From Candidatus Thorarchaeota archaeon (GTDB taxonomy: Archaea > Asgardarchaeota > Thorarchaeia > Thorarchaeales > Thorarchaeaceae): DNA of 10,778 bases. Positions 1-10,778 of the stretch are shown here, in pieces. The notes under the pieces are model-generated. The model saw only the letters and a list, made by a program, of their open reading frames with translations, had not been told where the DNA came from and searched no databases. The stretch lies in the NCBI GenBank assembly GCA_016839605.1, contig JAEOTX010000244.1, positions 1-10,778 on the forward strand, read 5' to 3'. The translations under genes and the position numbers were made by a program. How positions within the stretch are numbered: the stretch's first letter is position 1; each line of letters starts with the position of its first letter.

Positions 1-1412
1 GGATCAGTCTTTTTCTTTATCTTCGCCATCTTTCCATAAATGTGCTTACCGAAGAAACTCCGACTATATGCAACGTTCCACATGCCAATAGAATATGCAC
101 GGCCACCATGTTTCACACCAAGGTTGATGACATCAAGTGACCGATACCATCCCATGAGGAATGAGATCCTCTTCCGTTCGTCATCAAGAAACCATGTCAG
201 AACAGCGACTTCTCCTTTATCCGAAACTGCTCCTTCAGCTGCGTATGATTCTCCCTTGAAGTGCTTGTCCATATGTTGTAGAAAACCACTCAAACGTTGA
301 AGAGGAACATATACCTCAGAAGGTGCAAGACTTGGTCCAAGTCGCTTTATTCTCATGGGATAGAATCTCTCAGCCCATTCATGGTTCGCAATCTCTTCAG
401 ACTCAATCGTGCCATTATGTTGATGCACGATTTGAAGAAGTTTCCCCGTTCCTTCAGTAATCTCGTCCTGCGTCCCTTCGAAAGCAGCAAGAATGAGCCA
501 TTCGCCTGCTGACTCAGGAGCCATATCAAGCTCAGCCAGCATTTTGTGAAATAGGTCGGTGATGAAATGAAGATAGAAAGGTCTAGTGGCTTTGAGAATG
601 TCCTCCATCGCTGTCTGCATAGCTTCTCGGTTACTGAATGACGCCACAACTGGATGGATGTTTTTGAGAGGTATCAGTTTCAGTACTACTCGGGTTATGA
701 CCCCGAGCGCCCCGTTACTATCCACCATGAGTTCCTTGATTTCTTTTCCAGATTGGATTTTTTGATCTTCGTAGCTCCATAGATATTCATCCTCACCAGG
801 GAAGAAGCTATACCCTCCATCCTCATCATCAAAGAAATCCGCCTGGGGATCATTTGTTCTTACAATGCGACCATCAGGAAGGACCGTTTCCATATCAACA
901 ACCTGTTCTCGAATTCCACCGTATTTCGTGCTGCCAATTCCTATACCACCAGCAGCAACCCAACCCCCCACGGTACTTGACAATGCACTTGATGGATATG
1001 CTCTTACGGTGACACCTTCTTCCTCAAGGTCTTCTAGGAGTTTTCCCCATATGATGCCAGCTCCAACTTCCACAGTCATTTTATCCTTGTCAATCTCATG
1101 TATCTTATTCATTCGAGTAGTTTCGATGACCAAACCCCCTCGTGTGGGAAGAGCGCCCCCATACCCAGACGTACCATGACCGCGAGGAACTACTGGTATT
1201 TTGTGTTCAATACAATACTTCAAGAGGTTGGATACAATCTCAGCATTCACTGGCTGAGCTACAGCCTCTGCTTTTGTGACTAGAATGTCATTGACCAATC
1301 CTGGCAATGCTGCAATGTCGTGGGAATAGAGATTGGTCATGAACTCCTCTGCAGAGAAGAAGTCTTCACCAGTGATGTCAGCTAGACCTTGGAGTTGCTT
1401 GTTACTCAACAT
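1..1412 (-). CDS. FAD-binding oxidoreductase, VAO/PCMH (GlcD/D-lactate dehydrogenase-like) fold, paralog C; 3' end runs off the window
   Basis: Not in the ORF track. My translation of the minus strand is stop-free from GTG1421/ATG1418/ATG1412 to base 1: MLSNKQLQGLADITGEDFFSAEEFMTNLYSHDIAALPG...VVPRGHGTSGYGGALP...AYPSSALSSTVGGWVAAGGIGIGSTKYG...DSNGALGVITRVVLKL...EWAERFYPMRIKRLGPSLAPSEV...WFLDDERKR...HGGRAYSIGMWN...KIKKKTDP. It is colinear with 4010..5716. ATG1412 is preferred because GGTGA lies 5 nt upstream. Confidence 0.93.
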   Translation of the reverse strand, partial: MLSNKQLQGLADITGEDFFSAEEFMTNLYSHDIAALPGLVNDILVTKAEAVAQPVNAEIVSNLLKYCIEHKIPVVPRGHGTSGYGGALPTRGGLVIETTRMNKIHEIDKDKMTVEVGAGIIWGKLLEDLEEEGVTVRAYPSSALSSTVGGWVAAGGIGIGSTKYGGIREQVVDMETVLPDGRIVRTNDPQADFFDDEDGGYSFFPGEDEYLWSYEDQKIQSGKEIKELMVDSNGALGVITRVVLKLIPLKNIHPVVASFSNREAMQTAMEDILKATRPFYLHFITDLFHKMLAELDMAPESAGEWLILAAFEGTQDEITEGTGKLLQIVHQHNGTIESEEIANHEWAERFYPMRIKRLGPSLAPSEVYVPLQRLSGFLQHMDKHFKGESYAAEGAVSDKGEVAVLTWFLDDERKRISFLMGWYRSLDVINLGVKHGGRAYSIGMWNVAYSRSFFGKHIYGKMAKIKKKTD

Positions 1413-1421
1413 ATCCATCAC

Positions 1422-2606
1422 CTACTCTATGCCTAGTGCCTCCACTACAATCTGAGAAAGGTCTTTGAAGATGATTTTGGACTCTCTATCCTCAATCCCA
1501 TCCCTAAATGACATAGTACAGGAAGGACATTCACTAGCTATTATCTCAGCACCAGCCTTCTCAGCTGCTTCGATTCTCCGACCTGACACACGGACTGACA
1601 TCAAGGGATTAGTCCCCTTAAGGAGGCCCCCGCCGCCACAACATCTGGCCTTACTGCGATTGTGCTTCATTTCTCGAAGATCAAGCCCAGGGATTGCATT
1701 CAGTATCTCTCTTGCAGGATCGTAGATGTGTTGATGCCTGCCCAACTCGCAGGGATCATGCCATGTGACAACATGAGAATACTCCCTATCGAACTTGATC
1801 TTTCCTTCCTTCATCTGTCGCAAGATGAATTCAGAAAACGGAAGGAACTCTAATCCCTCCACAGCCTCTTTGCCCAATAGGTGGGGGTATTCTTCATTGA
1901 AAGCACGGTGGCACCCAGGGCAGTTGAATACAACCGTCTTTACTCCCAGTTCCTTCAGAGTGGTAAGGTGGTGCTCAGCCATAGATCTTGCCTTCTCAAA
2001 CTCACCTGCTACAAAGTAGGGGTTGCCGCAGCAGTATTCCTTTTCTCCGAGAATCGTGAAATCAAGCCCGAGATGGTCGAAGATTTTGGCTGTGTTCTCT
2101 CCCATGTGTGCTAGTGTCCCCTTGAATGAGATATTGCAGCCTGCGAAGTATGCATATTCGGCTGGGACAAGCTCCTTATCCTCTATAAGATCATCAACCA
2201 TATCTGTCCAAAGCGTTCTATCGACCTGATCAATCTCCATGATGTTCTTGCTGCTCTCAATTGAACTGTCTAAGAACTTCACAATCTCTGGCCATTCTCC
2301 AAGATTGCCGATCTCATTCCTGATTAGCTGCCAGAATCTAAGCAACGGGATATTAGTCTGACATATCTCCTCACATGCGCCACAGAGGGTGCATTTGAAG
2401 ATACGATCCGCAAAGTCCTCTGGAATAGGCTCATTATCTTTGATCAATGACTTTAGTTGGTAGAGCTTACCTCTTGGGGATTGAGAATCCCAAAGTGTAT
2501 CCAAATATGCTGGACAGACGAATGTGCAGAATCCACAGCGAGCACACACAGTAGGTTCGATATCGAGCGCTTCTGCCTTAAGTTGTTCAAACAAATCGCT
2601 TCCCAT
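1422..2606 (-). CDS. (Fe-S)-binding oxidoreductase subunit, GlcF/HdrD-like: two ferredoxin-type [4Fe-4S] motifs plus two CCG domains, paralog C
   Basis: CARCGFCTFVCP and CTLCGACEEICQ; CCG1 FAGC...YCCG...NCPGC; CCG2 HDPCELGR...RCCGGGG...ECPSC; SD GGAGG at 2613-2617. Confidence 0.93.
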   Translation of the reverse strand: MGSDLFEQLKAEALDIEPTVCARCGFCTFVCPAYLDTLWDSQSPRGKLYQLKSLIKDNEPIPEDFADRIFKCTLCGACEEICQTNIPLLRFWQLIRNEIGNLGEWPEIVKFLDSSIESSKNIMEIDQVDRTLWTDMVDDLIEDKELVPAEYAYFAGCNISFKGTLAHMGENTAKIFDHLGLDFTILGEKEYCCGNPYFVAGEFEKARSMAEHHLTTLKELGVKTVVFNCPGCHRAFNEEYPHLLGKEAVEGLEFLPFSEFILRQMKEGKIKFDREYSHVVTWHDPCELGRHQHIYDPAREILNAIPGLDLREMKHNRSKARCCGGGGLLKGTNPLMSVRVSGRRIEAAEKAGAEIIASECPSCTMSFRDGIEDRESKIIFKDLSQIVVEALGIE

Positions 2607-2618
2607 ACGAAGCCTCCT

Positions 2619-3116
2619 TTATGGCCAAGGTAGTCCTATCCAATCTAGGACTGGCTCTAATATCGATTCACCGTAGACTGCTATGCCTCCTAACGCAGCA
2701 ATTATGATCATTAGGACGCCAGCTACGATAACCATTATTCCATAGATGAGATATGATGAGGTCTTCTCCCAGACTCTATCACTAAGCTTTGTTCGCAAAA
2801 CTATCACGAAGATGTATATCTCAGTGGCAATAATCGACCAGAGAATCTTGAACCGCATGTAGGCATTGTTCTCGAGTGCTACATATGGCCAGTCCATGAA
2901 TCCAGAGATCATTCCAGCAAAGAGTCCAAGCAAGACGATTATATTCCCCCAGTGGATGAATATGTCAAACTCATGGAATAGCTTGGCCATCCGTGTACCC
3001 GGAGTTCTGATTCCCTCCCTAAACACTAGTCGGAATACAATGTTAATGAGTGCTAAGACAGCAGTTGCTGCACCGATTCCAGTGTGAAAGTGTACGAAGA
3101 CTGGATGTAACGCCAT
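2619..3116 (-). CDS. DUF2231-like integral membrane protein (about 4 TM helices)
   Basis: N-terminal LHPVFVHF and C-terminal LGGIAVYG resemble the DUF2231 HPxxVHFP and GGxxVY patterns, with four hydrophobic stretches. Start moved from GTG3125 to ATG3116 because that GTG lies inside the GGTGA SD. Confidence 0.75.
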   Translation of the reverse strand: MALHPVFVHFHTGIGAATAVLALINIVFRLVFREGIRTPGTRMAKLFHEFDIFIHWGNIIVLLGLFAGMISGFMDWPYVALENNAYMRFKILWSIIATEIYIFVIVLRTKLSDRVWEKTSSYLIYGIMVIVAGVLMIIIAALGGIAVYGESILEPVLDWIGLPWP

Positions 3117-3125
3117 ATCAATCAC

Positions 3126-3782
3126 CTACTGTGGACCTGCCCTCCGTATGATCACAAGACCAACAAGTGACAATATGATGGCTGTGACGGGAGTAAATAC
3201 GTACATCTGAGTGTACCAAATCTCCTTTCTTTCTTCCTCACTCAAAGTTGTAGGGGTAGGTGTGGTGGTAGTGGGTGTGGTAGTAGTAGGGGTTGGACTG
3301 GTCGTGGTCGTACCTGTGCCGGTTCCAGCAACAACATTTACAGAAACATCAAGACTTGCAGCCTTAAGATCTGAAACAGGGCCTGAGGCTGCCCAAATTT
3401 GGATTGTGAACGAGCCTGCTGATTGTGGAGTAATGGTCACAGCAACCGTTATCTCACCGGTGTTATCATTTGTGTCCTCGCCATCTCCATCCTCAACGAG
3501 CTGAGTGGAGTACGTAAACTGGTTATTATTTGCAAGACCCGTGACAATTTTAATTGCCTCACTTCCTGCTGCTGCATCAATAACAAGGATGAATTGCTCA
3601 CCTACAATGGCATCAACTGTCCCTGTTGCATTTGAGCCCAATGTCAGAACACTAGTATTGGTGTGACACGTATCACACGCTGAGTTCTGATCCACGTCTG
3701 CTATCGCAAAACCAGCACCAATGAATAATATAGCGATGAAGGCTATAGCGCCAAGCAACATCGTTCTGTGATGTCTTCCCAT
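3126..3782 (-). CDS. Exported, C-terminally membrane-anchored protein with one CxxCH heme-c motif (putative monoheme cytochrome c with a beta-rich domain)
   Basis: Basic N-region plus hydrophobic core ending AIA|D (signal peptide); CDTCH at 3663-3677; beta-strand-like domain; Thr/Pro linker; TM helix MYVFTPVTAIILSLVGLVII followed by RR; SD AGGTGA upstream. Confidence 0.8.
   Translation of the reverse strand: MGRHHRTMLLGAIAFIAILFIGAGFAIADVDQNSACDTCHTNTSVLTLGSNATGTVDAIVGEQFILVIDAAAGSEAIKIVTGLANNNQFTYSTQLVEDGDGEDTNDNTGEITVAVTITPQSAGSFTIQIWAASGPVSDLKAASLDVSVNVVAGTGTGTTTTSPTPTTTTPTTTTPTPTTLSEEERKEIWYTQMYVFTPVTAIILSLVGLVIIRRAGPQ
3247..3326 (-). repeat. Low-complexity Thr/Pro-rich linker coding tract (GTGTGTTTTSPTPTTTTPTTTTPTPTT)
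   Basis: Imperfect gtg/gta triplet repeats on the plus strand, within CDS 3126..3782, just before the TM anchor. Confidence 0.85.
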
Positions 3783-3788
3783 ACAATC

Positions 3789-3795
3789 ATCACCT
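3789..3795 (-). promoter_or_regulatory. Shine-Dalgarno site (AGGTGAT) for CDS 3126..3782
   Basis: Minus strand reads TAAGGTGATGATTGTATG, matching the archaeal GGAGGTGA-type SD. Confidence 0.7.
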
Positions 3796-3877
3796 TAGAG
3801 TCAGGCACACTTGCTCGAATCATCCGTTCGTTCATTGTCCAAGACCTATACGGTTTCAGTCCGAAACTCAATACCGT

Positions 3878-3894
3878 TATTTTAAGCATATCGG
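3878..3894 (-). promoter_or_regulatory. Putative archaeal promoter (BRE + TATA box) for TU3
   Basis: Minus strand CCGATATG-CTTAAAATA in the 227-nt intergenic gap, about 95 nt upstream of ATG3782; resembles the element at 6938-6955. Confidence 0.5.
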
Positions 3895-3939
3895 AATGTT
3901 CAATCATTACGATTCAAGTATAGATAGTTACGTCTTGCA

Positions 3940-3971
3940 TCTATTGCATAATAGAAATTACAATATGTAAT
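3940..3971. promoter_or_regulatory. Two adjacent palindromes, candidate transcription-factor operators
   Basis: TCTATT-gcat-AATAGA (3940-3955) and ATTACA-ata-TGTAAT (3957-3971), upstream of the putative TU3 promoter. Confidence 0.4.
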
Positions 3972-4009
3972 CATTCTCACCGTTTAGCTTCGATTGCGTC
4001 GCTTAATGC

Positions 4010-5716
4010 TTACCTGTTGAGAAACTTGTCAAGGAATCGTAACAGGGGGATTCCCATTGCCAGTGCCTGATTCAGCGTCATCAGCTTCATGGCTAATAGA
4101 CCTACTGCTCCTCCGAGAATCGACAAGTACCAAATGAGCTGTACATGCAGGAATTGCAGTGGAAACGATGTCAAGAGGTCGCCAGCCCGAGTGAGCCCTA
4201 GAAAACTTGGTCCAAAGAAGAGTAATCCGAATGTCAAGATGAAGCCCACGCCAAAACCAAAGAGTTGCGAATGCCATGCCGTCTGAGCTCTGCCACCAAA
4301 GACCTTCACCGGATTGAGCATATTTCGTGGGTCAACATCCTTCTTCAATTGCTTCAGCTTAGCTATCTTGTCTTCTCCATAGAATACCTTTGCATGCCTT
4401 GTGTTCCAGAGCGCTACAGCATAGGGGTGACCTTCGTGCTTTCGAGCCAGTGACGCTATGTCGAAAGATCTGTGCCATCCTATCGTATACCTGAATTTCT
4501 TTCTCTCATCATCTAATATCCAAACCAGGTAGGATGCCACACCATCCGCTCCGATTGTTCCCTCAACGGCGAACTTGGAGTTACCAAGCCTGTCTAGTGT
4601 GTCTTGATGGAGATCTGGGAGGTTGTCCACTGGAGTCGTGACCTCAGCGGGAACAAGACTGGGTCCCTGTCTCTTGAATCTTAGCGGATAAAGGCGTTCA
4701 TCCCAGTGGAAGTCTGCCCGTTTCTCATCGAGGAGTGTCCCCTGATTTTCACTTACAATCTTCTCAATTGCTTCTATGCCGTCATCATTGTCATAGATAG
4801 TACCATGCAAAGCTCCAGCAAGCAAGAATTTGTCCCATTCCGCAGGGAAACCAATCAGCGATGCTAGTTTGGAAGTATGGTTATTGTCAAGATATCGAAG
4901 GTGATATGGCAAAGCACTGTCAATCATTATCTGAGCTACTTTAGCGAGGTCTGCTATGGATTCGAATGAACATGCGAATGGACGGAGTTGCAGTTTGGGA
5001 ATAGTCCGGAGTGTGACCTTGGTGATGATTCCAAGCGTTCCGTATGTTCCTGATAGAACTTCATTGAGTCTGATGCTGCCGCCCACTTTATCGGAAAGCC
5101 ATTCAGTCCCTTCAGTCGCCTCATCATGAAGATCATCAGGCTGAGGTCCTACCACTACGTCACCTACTCTGACAATTTTGCCGTTAGCCAATACAGCCTC
5201 GATACCGACTACTTGGTCACCAATCTCGCCATGTTTCGCGGATCCAATTCCAAAGCCACCACTGGCAACGAAACCGCCAACTGTTGCGGCAGTGGCACTC
5301 GAAGGATAGACGGGCAAGGTAGTACCCATCCGTTCCAGAATCATCAGTAATTCCCGCCATGTTATTCCAGCCTCAACTGTAACAGTGCAAGCATAGTCAT
5401 CGAGATGAACCATCTGATTCATCTGTGTCAGACTCACACAGAGACCTCTCTTTACAGGAATTGCTCCTCCCCAACCTGATGTTCCATTGCCACGCGGTAC
5501 AATGGGCAGGTCATGCTCCATGGCGTACCTCAAAAGATGTTGCAGTGATTTTACAGTGACTGGCTGGGCAACAACGTCGAACTGATTGTCAATAATCTGC
5601 TTCGCTATGCCTGGAAGGTTAGCTGCGTCTTCAGAGTATATCCTGCACGTTTCATCATCTGCTGTCACATTGTCAGCGCCCACAATATCCTCAAGCTCCT
5701 GTGGGATTATCTTCAT
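4010..5716 (-). CDS. FAD-binding oxidoreductase, VAO/GlcD-like fold, paralog B, with C-terminal hydrophobic (about 2 TM) extension
   Basis: PRGNGTSGWGG PP-loop, YPSSATAATVGGFVASGGFGIGS, GTYGTLGIIT, C-terminal LKKDVDPRNMLNP; then about 85 mostly hydrophobic residues. The start overlaps the upstream stop (ATGA, 5713-5716). Confidence 0.93.
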   Translation of the reverse strand: MKIIPQELEDIVGADNVTADDETCRIYSEDAANLPGIAKQIIDNQFDVVAQPVTVKSLQHLLRYAMEHDLPIVPRGNGTSGWGGAIPVKRGLCVSLTQMNQMVHLDDYACTVTVEAGITWRELLMILERMGTTLPVYPSSATAATVGGFVASGGFGIGSAKHGEIGDQVVGIEAVLANGKIVRVGDVVVGPQPDDLHDEATEGTEWLSDKVGGSIRLNEVLSGTYGTLGIITKVTLRTIPKLQLRPFACSFESIADLAKVAQIMIDSALPYHLRYLDNNHTSKLASLIGFPAEWDKFLLAGALHGTIYDNDDGIEAIEKIVSENQGTLLDEKRADFHWDERLYPLRFKRQGPSLVPAEVTTPVDNLPDLHQDTLDRLGNSKFAVEGTIGADGVASYLVWILDDERKKFRYTIGWHRSFDIASLARKHEGHPYAVALWNTRHAKVFYGEDKIAKLKQLKKDVDPRNMLNPVKVFGGRAQTAWHSQLFGFGVGFILTFGLLFFGPSFLGLTRAGDLLTSFPLQFLHVQLIWYLSILGGAVGLLAMKLMTLNQALAMGIPLLRFLDKFLNR

Positions 5717-6915
5717 TGTTGCACATCTCCCTCCCCCTCTTCTGAGCTCAGTGAGTTTGCAACTAGCTGTGCAATGTCTAGAATCTGTACGCTGTAACCC
5801 AAAGTTATTGTTGCGAGGTCGAATGCCATCTCACAACGAGGGCATTCTGTGACAAGTAGTGATGCTGGAGTGACTGATGCATCCCTCAGCCGCATCTCAG
5901 CTATTTGTGCAGACAGGTGTGGGTCTATCATATTGAGGAGTGCATGCGAACCACAACACCTAGTGTCCTCCTCTGTTGAGACCATTTCCACTCGGTAAAT
6001 GCCAGGAATTCTCTCAATTACATTGCGGGGCTCCTTCCCAACTCCTAGAACCCTTGCTGATATGCAAGGGTCATGATACGTGGCAGTAATCATAGGCTGT
6101 TCTTCGAAAGCAAGGAGTCCCTTCTGGATGAGCTGATTAATGAACTGCGAAGCGGTCAGGAGTTCCATCTTTCTTACAGCAGATGTTCCCGAGCTCTTGT
6201 GCATTGAACTGATCCATGTGCTCGCACAAGACGGACAACTGAACACAACCTTCCTCACACCGAGATCAGCCAATGCCTGAGCGTTCTTCTCTACCATTGT
6301 TGGAGTGCCCTCAGGCTCTCCCGCCCATAGCAGTGGTGCTCCACAGCATGATTCCTCTTCGCCAAGGAGAGTGTACTCTACGCCTGCATGCTCCATGATT
6401 TTAATCATAGACCGGGCTACATCGTGAAGCGGGTGTTTCAATGATACATTGCACCCCAAGAAGAACGCCACTTCTGCTTTCGCACTGATTCTTGTTTCGA
6501 TAATATCCTCCATGCCCTCTGCCCATAGAAGCCTGCTTGCGCGGCCTATAGAAAATGGATCACCTGTCCTCTTGATGGATTCACTTGCGAACTTCACTGG
6601 AGCTGGAGTTAGGTTTCTTGCTTTGGCTTCTTCACGCATTAGCTCCCAAAACCGGTCGAGTCTGATGCTAGTAGTGCATACTGTCGTGCAATGTTCGCAT
6701 AAGGTACACAGAAAGAGTTTCCTCGTGAATTCTAGATTGAATTCTGACTCCTTCTCCAAAATTGATTTGGTAATGCTGAGTTTACCACGAGGGCCATAGG
6801 GTTCCCATCTCATCTGGCGAAAGACAGGACATACTAATGTGCAGTTGCCGCATGAAGCGCAAACATATGGGTCATTCTTCTGACCGCTCTGTTCAATCGG
6901 CCCTGGCTTAGTCAT
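5713..6915 (-). CDS. (Fe-S)-binding oxidoreductase subunit, GlcF/HdrD-like (2x[4Fe-4S] + 2 CCG), paralog B
   Basis: CASCGNCTLVCP and CTLCEHCTTVCT; FLGC...SCCG...SCPSC; HDPC...RCCG...ECPRC. Confidence 0.93.
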   Translation of the reverse strand: MTKPGPIEQSGQKNDPYVCASCGNCTLVCPVFRQMRWEPYGPRGKLSITKSILEKESEFNLEFTRKLFLCTLCEHCTTVCTTSIRLDRFWELMREEAKARNLTPAPVKFASESIKRTGDPFSIGRASRLLWAEGMEDIIETRISAKAEVAFFLGCNVSLKHPLHDVARSMIKIMEHAGVEYTLLGEEESCCGAPLLWAGEPEGTPTMVEKNAQALADLGVRKVVFSCPSCASTWISSMHKSSGTSAVRKMELLTASQFINQLIQKGLLAFEEQPMITATYHDPCISARVLGVGKEPRNVIERIPGIYRVEMVSTEEDTRCCGSHALLNMIDPHLSAQIAEMRLRDASVTPASLLVTECPRCEMAFDLATITLGYSVQILDIAQLVANSLSSEEGEGDVQQ

Positions 6916-6937
6916 TCCAAAAGACTCTCAATGATTC

Positions 6938-6955
6938 TACCTTAAGACTGTTCGG
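6938..6955 (-). promoter_or_regulatory. Putative archaeal promoter (BRE + TATA box) for TU2, probably giving a leaderless mRNA
   Basis: Minus strand CCGAACAGT-CTTAAGGTA; the CTTAAG at 6941-6946 is about 25 nt from ATG6915, and no clear SD precedes that ATG. Confidence 0.55.
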
Positions 6956-6964
6956 CTAAGGCTC

Positions 6965-7005
6965 AAAAATGAAAGGGTTCTGGAGCACCAGTTGGTGCCC
7001 CAGAA
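6965..7005 (-). terminator. Hairpin plus U-rich tract, likely terminator of TU1
   Basis: Minus strand TTCTGGGGCACC-AACT-GGTGCTCCAGAA (12-bp stem with one G-U pair), then CCCTTTCATTTTT, starting 13 nt after the stop at 7019. Confidence 0.7.
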
Positions 7006-7018
7006 GCGCTACTAATTC

Positions 7019-8350
7019 CTAGGAAAGGTCTTCTATCATCTCACCAGCGCAGGCTATGCCCGACATTGAAGCTGCTTCCATACTTGCATAGTATATTCCA
7101 CAATTAGCAAAAGCACCTGCAACATAGAGCCCTTCAACTCCAGTCCTGTTTGTTTTCAGTCGGTTTTCCATAATGCCCGGTGGTTGTGACAAGACTGATC
7201 TCCAGATCTTCCAGCTCTTCTTCCAGGTCACCTTGGTTTCTACACCCGGAATTAGTTCCTTTAGCTCATCAAGTAGTATCTCAGTTGCTTCTTCATCATT
7301 TACCTTGAGGAGTTCCTTGTCAATACTTGTGACAGTCAGAAGTGACTCACCGATTGGTGCCAGAACTCCTGAAACTCTTTTTGCTTCCGCTACAATGTTG
7401 ATTTTTCTTCTAGGAACAAATGCACCTACATTGAAATCAAGTACCCGTGAGGAGAGACCAAAGTAAGCGACGGTCGATGGAGCGTAGGTGAATTTACCAA
7501 CAGCTTCGGTGAAGTCCTTTGGCAATTTATTCATATTGATTAGATTGGGCAGTAGGTCGATGGGAGTCGTTACGACAACAGCATCTGTATCAACATGTGT
7601 ATCCTTGCCATCTTGTTCATAATCTACCCCCTGAACCTTACCATCTTCAATGATAATCTGTTTGACAGTGCAGTTCACTTTTGGTTCAACAGCGAAATTT
7701 CGAGCTTGAAGCATGAGGGTATATGGCACACTTCCTAGACCGCCTCGTTCAGGATACATTGCCTTGAATCCATCTTCATAGGCAAACCTCTGCTTCTCTG
7801 AGAAGAGATACTGCCCAGCAGAGACCTCATCAGGTGTCATGAAGGTGACTGTTCTAATCAATGGATCATAGAAATCCTGCTGAATAGATTCGGGAATGCC
7901 TTTCTCTTCTGCATATTGGGCAAAGGTCATTTTATCAAGTTCTAGAAACTCCTCATCAGGACGATTCATACTTTCCTGAACGATTAATCCCAGACGTGCC
8001 CTGTCTGTCATTGGCAAGAGCCCGAACTTGGCTAGGTCCACTGCAGACTTACGAACGATGTGCCTGTCACCCCCCTTGAGCCAGACCGCTCCTTCTCCTA
8101 CGGTAGTCATTCTGATTCCGCTTCGTTCCAGAATTGGAATCAGCGACTTGAAACCACCGACAAAGAAGTGGAGTCCCTGATCGAATACATAACCCGACTC
8201 AGTGAACGACCTCGCTCGGCCGCCTACAGTCTTCTCCTTCTCAAGGATTGTGCACCGTGCTTTTAGACCCTTGAGCTCTAATGCACAGCTAAAACCAGCA
8301 ATCCCTGCACCAACTACTACAACTTTAGTCCCCTTTCTCGACTCACTCAT
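7019..8350 (-). CDS. FAD-dependent oxidoreductase, amine-oxidase superfamily; closest in motifs to phytoene/zeta-carotene desaturases (CrtP/CrtQ) and HpnE
   Basis: Rossmann VVVGAGIAG...LEK...VGGR; DQGLHFF (cf. PDS/ZDS ExGLHxFFG); C-terminal GLYVAG...YYASMEAASMSG (cf. PDS FYLAGDYT...YLASMEGAVLSG). The superfamily call is firm; the subfamily call rests on remembered motifs. Confidence 0.85.
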   Translation of the reverse strand: MSESRKGTKVVVVGAGIAGFSCALELKGLKARCTILEKEKTVGGRARSFTESGYVFDQGLHFFVGGFKSLIPILERSGIRMTTVGEGAVWLKGGDRHIVRKSAVDLAKFGLLPMTDRARLGLIVQESMNRPDEEFLELDKMTFAQYAEEKGIPESIQQDFYDPLIRTVTFMTPDEVSAGQYLFSEKQRFAYEDGFKAMYPERGGLGSVPYTLMLQARNFAVEPKVNCTVKQIIIEDGKVQGVDYEQDGKDTHVDTDAVVVTTPIDLLPNLINMNKLPKDFTEAVGKFTYAPSTVAYFGLSSRVLDFNVGAFVPRRKINIVAEAKRVSGVLAPIGESLLTVTSIDKELLKVNDEEATEILLDELKELIPGVETKVTWKKSWKIWRSVLSQPPGIMENRLKTNRTGVEGLYVAGAFANCGIYYASMEAASMSGIACAGEMIEDLS

Positions 8351-8357
8351 TTCGTTC

Positions 8358-9482
8358 TCACTCCTCTACTAGAGATGACTGTGCCAGATCTAAGACCAGC
8401 TCGTCCAACTGAATGACTTCTAGGTTGGTTTCACGAGCACAGTAGCTCAAGTTCTTGTAACAAGATACACACGGTGTAATCATTCCGTCAACTCCTAGCT
8501 CAACAGCTTCATTAACCCTTCTTTTCCCAACAGATTCTGAGAGATCAGGATCTAGGACTGTCAAGAAACCACCACAGCAATTGGAATTCTCCCTGTTGTT
8601 AGGCAGTTCCACAAACTCGAGATCAGGAATAGCTTTGATTATCTCTCTGGGAGGCTCATAGATGCCAAGTGCCCTCCCAAGATGGCAACTGTCATGGAAC
8701 GTATAGGTGCCCTCCTTTCCCTTGAACGTCAAGACACCATTCTGAATCATGTCTGCTAGTACCTCAGCAGTGTGATGGATTTTCACATCAAATCCAGGAA
8801 CTAAGTGCGCATAGTGCTCTGCAAGTGTTCCATAGCACCCCCCGCAGCCAGTGACAATATGCTGTATGCCTGCTTTCTTGAACATCTCATAGTTCTTGCG
8901 TGCTATCCTCTCAAAACCCGCATCATCGCCTGCCCAGTAGGACATGAGCCCGCAGCACACTTCGCTAGGCACGAATCCTGCATCGACTTTGAGTTTCTGG
9001 AGCATGTCGACAACCATCTCTGGCTGATCAGGAAACCAGAAGCTTCCCATGCAGCCGCTGAATATTGCAGTATTCGATTTCTCTGGAAGGTCTAGGTCTT
9101 CAGCCCATATGGTCCGGTCTTCAGATTCGTATCCAATGAATGGCGTGCCTTCCTTGTCAAGCCAGTCAATGACCTTCACAAGGTTATCAGACATCTCTCC
9201 TCCTGTATTGAGAAGATTCGCCTTGGCATCATGCCAAATTTGAGTCACAGGAACACCAGCTGGGCAAATAGCCTCACACCTTCTGCAGTCTGCGCAATAG
9301 AGCCTCTGCAGCAGTTCTTGAGGCGGTTTCCTCATCTTTTCTCCATATGCTCTCAGCGCTCTGATTTTGCCTCCTGGACTGTCGAGCTCAGAACCCAATT
9401 CCATATACATCGGACAGGTGTCGCGACAGTAGTTGCAGGAGCCACAATGGCGCATCACTTTCTTATCAATATCCACTCTCAT
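8358..9482 (-). CDS. (Fe-S)-binding oxidoreductase subunit, GlcF/HdrD-like (2x[4Fe-4S] + 2 CCG), paralog A
   Basis: CGSCNYCRDTCP and CADCRRCEAICP; FSGC...VCCG...GCGGC; HDSCHLGR...NCCGG...PCVSC; SD GAGGTG overlapping the upstream stop. Confidence 0.93.
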   Translation of the reverse strand: MRVDIDKKVMRHCGSCNYCRDTCPMYMELGSELDSPGGKIRALRAYGEKMRKPPQELLQRLYCADCRRCEAICPAGVPVTQIWHDAKANLLNTGGEMSDNLVKVIDWLDKEGTPFIGYESEDRTIWAEDLDLPEKSNTAIFSGCMGSFWFPDQPEMVVDMLQKLKVDAGFVPSEVCCGLMSYWAGDDAGFERIARKNYEMFKKAGIQHIVTGCGGCYGTLAEHYAHLVPGFDVKIHHTAEVLADMIQNGVLTFKGKEGTYTFHDSCHLGRALGIYEPPREIIKAIPDLEFVELPNNRENSNCCGGFLTVLDPDLSESVGKRRVNEAVELGVDGMITPCVSCYKNLSYCARETNLEVIQLDELVLDLAQSSLVEE

Positions 9483-9494
9483 TGTTCTGCCACC

Positions 9495-10778
9495 TCATCT
9501 CCCCACATATCTTGAAAGCCGTCTAATCCCTGCGGCCATTGAAAACAACACATTCATCCTTGCATATGAAGTCATACAAGAGGTCACTCGATCTGGATTC
9601 ATGATGTTGTTCCGATCCCATTTTTCCTTGGCTGTCTTCATCATTTCCAGTTTCTCCGGATAAGCACGCTTCATATAGATTGAATTCTGGAGTCCGATCG
9701 AATAAGGCCCTCCTCCAAGAGAAATGGACTTCTTCACCATTTTATGGAGTATGCCCTTACTGGCAATGAACTTCAGATACTGGTCTGGATTCAGCATCAT
9801 CATTAACTCGATTCTCACCCAGCCTTGTGTACCCAGCATAGCGAACCAAATCGCAGGCACTTTATGGGATTTCTTATACAACTCATATTGCTTCAGCAGG
9901 TCGTAGACTTTGTCCACTTCAATCGAAACCTCCTGAAACATCAGAGTTTCACAGTGCTCCTTGGGACTGAACTCGCAGTCATAACGGAGAGCCCATTCTT
10001 GAGCTGCATACTCGACACTGAGGTCCATTCCACCGTTGTCTGCAATCACTTGCTTGAGTTCATCTATCGGGACCTTATCGGGATTATTTGGATAGGCAAC
10101 TGTTAAGACAAACTTCCCTTTTTCAAGTGGATTGCTATAGCTCTGGAAATCCTTGTCAGCAATCTTCAGATGGATGGGCCTCTGTTCAATGTCAGCAATC
10201 TGCCGCATCGTATTGCATAAATGCTCCAAATAATCGAAACTATAGCTGAAGGGTATGAAGTCATCTGGCTTCTGATGGATTTTCATCTTCACTTCAGTGA
10301 TGACTCCAAGTATGCCATAAGATCCGATGAATGGACCGATATCATCTCCACTGACCTTCACTAATTCTCCATCTGCATTGGCAATTGTCAATTCGAGTAG
10401 GTTCTCAATTAGGGCTCCATAGAAGGGGGTTCCGATACCCACTGCTCCACCGCATGCAATCCACCCACCAATGACGGCTGATTTCGCACTTGTCGGATAT
10501 ATCCCGATGGTCCGTCCTTCTTTTGCCAGTTCGATATCCAACCTTTCAAATGGAACTCCTGGTTCTAGCCTCACGTATCCTTCCTGTGCATTTATTTCAA
10601 GGATGGCGTCCATGCGTTTCATATCTAGAGATATACCGCCTCTGGTAGGGCTGGATGAGCCCAGACAGCTGGATGCGCCACCTCTTGGAATTACTGGGAG
10701 ATTATGTGAGGCTGCTGTTGTGAGAACTTCCTTGACCTCATCAACATTCTCGACTCTCACTACGTAGTCAGCAAGGTA
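9495..10778 (-). CDS. FAD-binding oxidoreductase, VAO/GlcD-like fold, paralog A; 5' end lies beyond the window
   Basis: The frame stays open past the track's GTG10760 to the edge (YLADYVVRVENVDEV...). Motifs: PRGGASSCLG, YPTSAKSAVIGGWIACGG, GSYGILGVIT, KEKWDRNNIMNP. Confidence 0.92.
   Translation of the reverse strand, partial: YLADYVVRVENVDEVKEVLTTAASHNLPVIPRGGASSCLGSSSPTRGGISLDMKRMDAILEINAQEGYVRLEPGVPFERLDIELAKEGRTIGIYPTSAKSAVIGGWIACGGAVGIGTPFYGALIENLLELTIANADGELVKVSGDDIGPFIGSYGILGVITEVKMKIHQKPDDFIPFSYSFDYLEHLCNTMRQIADIEQRPIHLKIADKDFQSYSNPLEKGKFVLTVAYPNNPDKVPIDELKQVIADNGGMDLSVEYAAQEWALRYDCEFSPKEHCETLMFQEVSIEVDKVYDLLKQYELYKKSHKVPAIWFAMLGTQGWVRIELMMMLNPDQYLKFIASKGILHKMVKKSISLGGGPYSIGLQNSIYMKRAYPEKLEMMKTAKEKWDRNNIMNPDRVTSCMTSYARMNVLFSMAAGIRRLSRYVGR

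Follow-up and report, generated by a model that had tools for sequence, protein, structure and literature searches.

What does a Thorarchaeota archaeon do with three pairs of flavin and iron-sulfur proteins, encoded side by side with a desaturase-like flavoenzyme, a candidate exported cytochrome and a small membrane protein? The genes in question fill a stretch of 10,778 nucleotides (nt), hereafter the window, which is the whole of contig C209 from a 3.08-Mb, 80%-complete, metagenome-assembled Thorarchaeota genome (G000). The initial annotation had taken the three flavin/iron-sulfur modules for successive steps of one O2-independent pathway acting on a hydrophobic substrate. In our analysis they look as much like parallel electron-transfer cassettes, and our best reading, to which we give a probability of about one half, is that the window forms the centre of an electron-transport island conserved in Thorarchaeota and encodes three paralogous cassettes, quinone-linked and attached to the membrane.

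All nine open reading frames (ORFs) of the window lie on the minus strand (Table 1), in the 5' to 3' order FADox1, CCG1, PDS-like, CCG2, FADox2, cyt218, mem168, CCG3 and FADox3. ORF calls and Pfam/NCBIfam matches agree with the gene content first described, namely three FAD-oxidase/CCG pairs, a PDS/HpnE-like enzyme, a CxxCH protein and a protein with four transmembrane (TM) helices. Pfam E-values of about 1e-28 to 1e-39 across the flavoprotein, CCG and amine-oxidase genes rule out chance domain matches. Genes for a lactate permease, LutB/C, Etf and HdrA had been reported as missing; neither these nor any other permease gene was found in the window. Judged by gene spacing, the arrangement suggests three sub-operons: in the first, FADox1 and CCG1 are separated by 12 nt and CCG1 and the PDS-like gene by 7 nt; in the second, CCG2 and FADox2 overlap by 4 nt; in the third, the gaps along cyt218-mem168-CCG3-FADox3 are 0, 12 and 0 nt.

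Table 1. Features of the window, with the cyt218 paralogue encoded just outside it.
Feature	Position (nt)	Strand	Description
FADox1	9495..10778	-	Pfam FAD_binding_4 (8e-34) and FAD-oxidase_C; 5' end cut, continues on C184
CCG1	8358..9482	-	Pfam CCG (8e-32) and Fer4_8; 2x[4Fe-4S] and two CCG domains
PDS/HpnE-like FAD enzyme	7019..8350	-	Pfam Amino_oxidase (1e-34), residues 17-439, full length
Hairpin with T-tract	6978..7005	-	12 bp, GC-rich; directly 3' of the PDS-like stop codon; strongest terminator-like match of the window
CCG2	5713..6915	-	Pfam CCG (8e-28) and Fer4_8 (6e-11); cassette 2
FADox2	4010..5716	-	568 residues; Pfam FAD_binding_4 and FAD-oxidase_C
cyt218	3126..3782	-	218 residues; candidate exported or membrane-tethered monohaem c-type cytochrome
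mem168	2619..3125	-	168 residues; four TM helices, several His
CCG3	1422..2606	-	Pfam CCG (4e-36); cassette 3
FADox3	3..1421	-	Pfam FAD_binding_4 (1e-38); 3' end cut, continues on C191
397-residue protein	L079:14974-16167 (C184 of G000, just upstream of FADox1)	+	cyt218 paralogue, E = 5e-13

The identical nine-gene order was found in six relatives (G015, G011, G020, G012, G022 and G005) that represent three genera of one family, and the PDS-like protein was present at 70% identity or more at 43 Thorarchaeota loci; the gene set is thus conserved together, a point that had been left to a synteny check. In a sample of 400 Asgard genomes, the PDS-like protein occurred in 41 of the 85 other genomes of the same family (genera g1, g5, g7, g23 and g25), while a second PDS-like clade, 35-40% identical, was seen in families f32 (three of five genomes) and f10.

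The locus extends beyond the window. C209 overlaps other contigs exactly at both ends: its first 127 nt match the reverse complement of the beginning of contig C191, and its last 127 nt (10652-10778) that of the end of contig C184; the two terminal genes, FADox1 and FADox3, are cut by the contig ends and continue on these contigs. After joining, FADox3 is colinear with its full-length orthologues, and the gene order across C184-C209-C191 agrees with long contigs of relatives. From these overlaps, a single locus was apparently split at branch points of the assembly graph into the three contigs, which together make up about 74 kb. On its upstream side, the joined locus carries Nuo-like genes, a 651-residue FADox::NuoB fusion and a further CCG protein (CCG0), then two PNPOx-type genes (the names DUF7530+PNPOx membrane protein and 161-residue PNPOx-like protein are taken from the G015 orthologues) and the 397-residue protein of Table 1. 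The first gene downstream of the window, on the opposite strand, is that of a MenA-like prenyltransferase; polyprenyl synthase and GGR-family reductase genes come next, followed by CcmB, CcmC, CcmE, an FMN reductase, CcmF, a 753-residue protein, a 520-residue multihaem cytochrome with eight C-X(2-5)-CH motifs, and MutS.

The solved proteins closest to the flavoproteins are mouse LDHD (mLDHD), LctD and glycolate oxidase, at 85-98 bits. For FADox2, the top PDB matches were mLDHD (8jdb, 98 bits) and LctD (7qh2), and p-cresol methylhydroxylase (PCMH) was also among the matches. The best NCBIfam match of the flavoproteins was GlcD (TIGR00387), at 127-149 bits against a cutoff of 568 bits, so that they fall below the equivalog level. 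In mLDHD, Mn2+ is coordinated by His398, His405 and Glu442, while His443 acts as the base and Arg347 holds the carboxylate; alanine mutants at all five residues are inactive (PMC10589216). In pairwise alignments, the residues found in FADox1, FADox2 and FADox3, in this order, are Thr, Thr and Ala at the position of His398; Glu, Ser and Val at His405; and Pro, Pro and Ala at Glu442. All three carry Tyr in place of His443 and keep the Arg of position 347. The Arg and a [P/A/L]-Tyr pattern recur in every orthologue, in a fourth cassette of the relatives and in the homologue from genome G336, as seen in an alignment of 30 sequences. The loss of the His-His-Glu metal site and of the catalytic His, with Tyr instead, argues that the cassette flavoproteins are not ordinary lactate or glycolate enzymes. 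A quick tree, which serves to group the proteins and not to order events, likewise sets the cassette flavoproteins apart from the canonical ones and divides them into (F1 + F4) and (F2, F3, the G336 homologue and FADox::NuoB). The active sites of the oxidases do not fit those of 2-hydroxyacid dehydrogenases, which supports the initial annotation on this point. A homologue search with FADox3 returned Thorarchaeota orthologues only.

Two of the flavoproteins are predicted to be held at the membrane through C-terminal helices. FADox2 ends in a hydrophobic tail of about 95 residues with TM-like segments at 490-508 and 523-541 (by hydropathy), and full-length FADox3 (578 residues) ends in a tail of about 95-100 residues with three TM-like helices; its C-terminal domain was detected only via alignment to orthologues and PDB chains. 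FADox1, once joined to C184 across the 127 nt, has an open frame of at most 505 residues and is without a long TM tail. Elsewhere in G000, on contig C179 (111291-112670, minus strand), lies a gene for a FAD_binding_4 protein with an AGPS-like "SHQHGVG" loop.

A motif scan found two CxxCxxCxxxC motifs and two complete C...CCG...CxxC motifs in each of CCG1, CCG2 and CCG3, and the Pfam CCG model matched each protein twice. All Cys residues of CCG1 are invariant among nine orthologues. CCG0, upstream of the window, has both CCG motifs and one exact CxxCxxCxxxC match. The top PDB match of CCG3 was mycobacterial EtfD (9ojn_A, 121 bits), followed by HdrB (5odc_B, 40 bits). Against the NCBIfam equivalog models TfrB, LdhH, GlpC, GlcF and DsrK, the CCG proteins stayed far below every cutoff, for instance at 148-151 bits for TfrB (cutoff 385) and 64-92 bits for GlcF (cutoff 333). 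The electron route proposed for EtfD leads from the flavoprotein over the CCG-bound clusters and the cubane clusters to haem b and menaquinone (PMC13083937).

The PDS-like enzyme belongs to no equivalog family, with 114 bits for HpnE (cutoff 283) and 84 bits for PDS (cutoff 569) in NCBIfam. In a profile search of the PDB, it matched rice PDS (5mog) over its full length at 136 bits, the next entry scoring 77 bits. Its AlphaFold model (predicted local distance difference test score, pLDDT, 82.6) has a Foldseek TM-score of 0.86 to 5mog, compared with 0.70 to protoporphyrinogen oxidases and about 0.7 to amine oxidases (MAO). A protoporphyrinogen oxidase identity of this gene was considered and rejected: PDS scores far higher, and ALAD was not found in five genomes. 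In rice PDS, phytoene and plastoquinone bind alternately in one hydrophobic tunnel, the quinone being a co-substrate, and Arg300 contacts norflurazon, a quinone analogue (PMC5703498). This Arg is conserved in the Thorarchaeota enzyme, whose "QRF" aligns with the "NRF" of rice PDS. The subfamily is restricted to Asgard archaea, its next relatives outside being about 25% identical. Phytoene/squalene synthase (SQS_PSY, PF00494) was not found in G000, G011, G015, G020 or G336, one of which is 100% complete, and a carotenoid or hopanoid/squalene role of the PDS-like enzyme is therefore unlikely. A complex prediction for CCG1 and the PDS-like enzyme scored 0.01, which is evidence neither way.

Genes for a quinone tail recur beside the cluster. 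A MenA-like gene lies 0-10 kb from it in G000, G002, G011, G015 and G020; that of G000 passes TIGR00751 by a narrow margin (116 bits, cutoff 102.15) and scores below the cutoffs of the other MenA equivalog models. In G336, of Asgard family f32, FADox (527 residues), CCG (393), PDS-like (450), MenA-like (315), GGR-family (399) and polyprenyl synthase (351) genes follow one another head to tail on one strand. The order PDS-like, MenA, GGR is found in G033, and in G012 a 512-residue PNPOx::MenA fusion (L015:11077-12615, minus strand) is inserted between CCG1 and the PDS-like gene, which hints at a reduce-then-prenylate step. MenG/UbiE scored above its cutoff in four Thorarchaeota genomes. The cytochrome c maturation (Ccm) genes for CcmB, CcmC, CcmE and CcmF are encoded in the same island as cyt218. 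The repeated linkage to MenA, GGR and prenyl synthase genes in two Asgard families, together with the Ccm genes and the NuoB fusion, argues for a quinone-centred electron-transport island. Some genera have MenA and a FADox/CCG pair without the PDS-like gene, and in two genomes that were checked Ccm was not found either, so the cassettes of the window look like an optional addition that goes together with cytochrome c maturation. Of the initial proposal of a hydrophobic substrate (an isoprenoid lipid, carotenoid or quinone), a link to a polyisoprenoid quinone is strongly supported by the neighbouring genes and the G336 operon, while a carotenoid or squalene substrate became unlikely.

Cassette 3 contributes the candidate haem and membrane parts of the window. 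In cyt218, an N-terminal anchor is followed by CDTCH, a beta-rich domain, a Thr/Pro-rich linker and a C-terminal TM helix; the hydrophobic segments are residues 9-27 and 194-212 (by hydropathy). Both Cys and the His of the motif (window 3663-3677, minus strand) are invariant among eight orthologues, and cyt218 would be expected from this motif to carry a haem; no other His or Met is invariant among the orthologues. The Cys spacing varies even among close orthologues (L012-L018, L077), which have C-X2-CH, C-X4-CH or C-X5-CH. The X4 and X5 spacings, unusual for the Ccm system, also occur in the 397-residue paralogue and in the 520-residue multihaem protein. The 397-residue protein combines a cyt218-like N-terminal half, with C-X4-CH, and His-bearing TM helices, so that cassette 1 too has a candidate exported haem and a membrane part just outside the window. 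This membrane part has no relation to the mem168 family (hhalign probability 1.5%).

The AlphaFold model of mem168 is a four-helix bundle (pLDDT 91), and by the positive-inside rule both ends of the protein would face outside. Its family is small, with 50 matches among 1.84 billion representative proteins. One His, His7, is nearly invariant across the family; His14 is common, and His51 is invariant only among the Thorarchaeota orthologues. This protein had been described as a DUF2231 membrane haem module. It has no Pfam match to DUF2231 (PF09990) even at E = 10; three of ten distant relatives, however, reach this model over its full length at 19-24.5 bits, just under the gathering cutoff of 26.4, and Atlas features assign mem168 to DUF2231 clusters at 0.85. 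These results point indirectly to a distant DUF2231-like family; the "haem module" is a hypothesis. In a Foldseek search of the PDB, no match of mem168 had an E-value below 0.2; the highest-ranking of these weak matches, to the haem-handling membrane proteins CcsBA, CcmC and STEAP, are a lead only, and a wide structure comparison returned generic four-helix bundles only.

The gene content, its conservation, the motifs, the fold relations and the genomic linkage to quinone-tail and Ccm genes are established. From them we infer complex formation, the direction of electron flow, a quinone as hub, a haem in cyt218 and any cofactor in mem168. Each cassette would consist of a VAO/GlcD-fold flavoprotein with a remodelled site, in which the metal site is gone, Tyr stands for the catalytic His and the Arg is kept, and of an EtfD/HdrD-like wire with two cubane clusters and two CCG-bound iron-sulfur clusters. 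The dedicated flavoprotein would feed or drain this wire at the membrane, making a split and elaborated EtfD/HdrDE-type system. To this, cassette 3 would add mem168 and the putative exported monohaem c protein cyt218, and cassette 1 the TM-fused cyt218 paralogue and the PDS-type flavoenzyme, in whose relatives a single tunnel accommodates both a long isoprenoid and a quinone. Electron exchange is the most likely function: the cassettes would connect substrates in the cytoplasm with a prenylated menaquinone-like carrier and with cytochromes c on the outer side of the membrane, and the tail of the carrier would come from the adjacent MenA, prenyl synthase and GGR genes.

Several observations speak against quinone-linked cassettes. 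On the complete chromosome of G004, a truncated FADox1, CCG1 and the PDS-like gene are still present, but cassette 3 is absent and MenA was not found, so that MenA may not be strictly required by the PDS-like enzyme. The search for known routes to a naphthoquinone head group was negative: MqnA/D had no match, and MenB matched sub-cutoff, crotonase-like proteins only. ALAD (PF00490), needed for haem synthesis, was not found in the five genomes, so that haem would need to be imported; taken together, these two results suggest that the quinone ring and the haem are scavenged or made by unrecognised enzymes. None of the flavoproteins is assigned a substrate. With one nearly invariant His and no detectable relative among solved haem proteins, mem168 leaves the transmembrane path of the electrons undemonstrated. 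As a separate observation on G004 (CP070658, L011, about 2.137-2.140 Mb), the FADox1 remnant is the C-terminal domain only, and a gene for a eukaryote-type topoisomerase IB adjoins.

Do the genes make the carrier rather than use it? The FADox/CCG pairs and the PDS-like enzyme could act in sequence on a lipid-soluble molecule and, with MenA, the PNPOx-like proteins, GGR and the prenyl synthase, make, salvage or modify (desaturate, saturate or dehydroxylate) a prenylated carrier. The FADox/CCG/PDS-like trio would in that case belong to an undescribed O2-independent route for making, salvaging or tailoring a quinone-like compound. We regard such a biosynthetic role as unlikely, though worth keeping in sight: it would account for the single-strand operon of G336, the PNPOx::MenA fusion beside the PDS-like gene in G012 and the failure to find Mqn/Men head-group genes, and it agrees with the remodelled active sites, with the TM tails of FADox2 and FADox3 and with the action of HpnE and PDS relatives on isoprenoid chains. 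The exported cytochrome and the membrane parts in cassettes 1 and 3, however, fit electron transfer better, and a similar flavoprotein is fused to NuoB. Moreover, the cassettes are paralogues and not a set of different chemistries, and MenA occurs with a FADox/CCG pair in genera that lack the PDS-like gene and Ccm. An improbable alternative is that a low-molecular-weight disulfide is reduced or oxidised at the CCG clusters, the flavoprotein donating the electrons, as in the disulfide role proposed in the literature for the GlcD-HdrD pairs of Bathyarchaeia, Methanomethylicia and Korarchaeia. Both CCG motifs do retain every Cys of the HdrB-like set, HdrB and HdrC rank next to EtfD among the solved relatives, and the thiol:fumarate reductase TfrB is among the best NCBIfam matches, but the EtfD score is three times that of HdrB, and the membrane parts, like the MenA/Ccm linkage, speak for a partner that is a quinone or a cytochrome. 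To our knowledge, no thiol cofactor pathway is known in Thorarchaeota, which also weighs against this chemistry.

Still less credible is that the window encodes ordinary D-lactate, glycolate or D-2-hydroxyacid dehydrogenases of the GlcDF/Dld-II type, in three copies of different specificities. The relatives of the flavoproteins would lead one there (mLDHD, LctD and glycolate oxidase among solved proteins, GlcD in NCBIfam), as would partners that resemble GlcF and GlpC and the conserved equivalent of Arg347. Yet the four other residues at which mLDHD does not tolerate alanine (PMC10589216), namely His398, His405, Glu442 and His443, are absent from all cassette flavoproteins, the scores are far below the GlcD cutoff, and G000 encodes elsewhere (C18:30834-32198, minus strand) a canonical GlcD/LDHD-type enzyme in which the HxxxxxxH and EH motifs are intact. 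We give hardly any credence to a carotenoid or hopanoid/squalene pathway in which the PDS/HpnE-like enzyme would desaturate phytoene or dehydroxylate hydroxysqualene. That PDS is its best solved relative and HpnE its best NCBIfam match is offset by scores far below the cutoffs of both families, by the failure to find SQS_PSY in the five genomes, and by neighbours of the MenA type and not CrtB or HpnCD.

How would quinone-linked cassettes compare with known systems? Mycobacterial EtfD (the Rv0338c homologue; 9OJN, PMC13083937) has the same two [4Fe-4S] and two CCG domains and likewise wires a flavoprotein to the membrane and menaquinone. It is, however, a single chain, has five TM helices and binds a bis-His haem b; it takes electrons from a soluble ETF, involves no cytochrome c and has a linear [3Fe-4S] cluster at one CCG site, whereas both CCG motifs of the Thorarchaeota proteins are complete. 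The Thorarchaeota system has instead a soluble CCG protein, a VAO-type flavoprotein that is partly membrane-anchored, a separate DUF2231-like protein with four TM helices and a candidate exported haem c protein. GlcDEF, Dld-II, LDHD and D2HGDH resemble the cassettes in pairing a flavoprotein of FAD_binding_4 and FAD-oxidase_C domains with a GlcF-like Fe-S/CCG subunit and in keeping Arg347. The Thorarchaeota flavoproteins differ from them by the absence of the His-His-Glu metal ligands and the catalytic His, with Tyr at position 443, by C-terminal TM tails, by their linkage to cytochrome c and MenA genes, and by scores below the family cutoffs.

In HdrDE of Methanosarcina and in anaerobic GlpABC, a membrane-docked CCG/Fe-S subunit exchanges electrons with a lipid-soluble carrier. 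The two flavoproteins and one CCG subunit of GlpABC recall FADox1, CCG1 and the PDS-like enzyme, and GlpC was among the NCBIfam matches; the Thorarchaeota flavoproteins are nevertheless not of the GlpA and GlpB families, no score reaches an equivalog cutoff, and the system has neither a cytochrome b of the HdrE/NarI type nor heterodisulfide cofactors. With PDS (5MOG) and HpnE, the PDS-like enzyme shares the fold (TM-score 0.86), a full-length alignment, the Arg300 equivalent and presumably a bound FAD. It differs in being 21% identical and Asgard-restricted, with phytoene/squalene synthase not found, and its gene is translationally coupled to that of a CCG Fe-S protein and adjoins MenA-type genes. 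In the flavocytochrome c PCMH (1DII) and in NicA2/CycN, a VAO-fold or amine-oxidase-fold flavoprotein hands electrons to a c-type cytochrome. These are soluble, periplasmic systems without a CCG wire or membrane parts, and the likeness of FADox2 to PCMH is confined to the FAD-binding domain.

Thorarchaeota are usually modelled as ferredoxin-based fermenters or acetogens. Among Asgard archaea, menaquinone-linked respiration has been assigned to Heimdallarchaeia in the literature that we searched. The island described here would tie flavin/Fe-S cassettes, a quinone-tail kit, Ccm and surface cytochromes to a complex-I-like pump, and would thereby alter our view of the energy metabolism of archaea closely related to the eukaryotic host lineage. 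Should the trio tailor a prenylated carrier after all, Thorarchaeota-type Asgard archaea would have a membrane redox carrier of their own and a respiration-like chain to the cell surface. For biochemistry, the locus defines a new VAO-fold flavoprotein subfamily whose Arg/Tyr site is metal-free, a new enzyme of the PDS type that is coupled to an Fe-S protein, and an EtfD-type electron wire in split form. The Thorarchaeota literature that was searched (HdrD/GlcD, menaquinone/cytochrome c, DUF2231) yielded no paper on the cluster, and the view that the combination is not a characterised pathway stands.

Some minor features of the locus remain to be reported. A scan of the window for bacterial promoters gave nothing above shuffled sequences; the models are bacterial and not relevant to archaea. 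The hairpin that follows the PDS-like stop codon (Table 1) is also present at the same place, with altered sequence, in G015, G011 and G005, while in G022 another hairpin occupies this site. Its probable role is that of a terminator or attenuator at a sub-operon boundary, or it may be a processing site. In G015, the region beyond FADox3 (L012:40-1774 and L076:11008-11922, both plus strand) encodes a NapH-like polyferredoxin membrane protein, a CuA-type cupredoxin (COX2/NosZ-like) and an EB_dh (DOMON-like haem-binding) protein.

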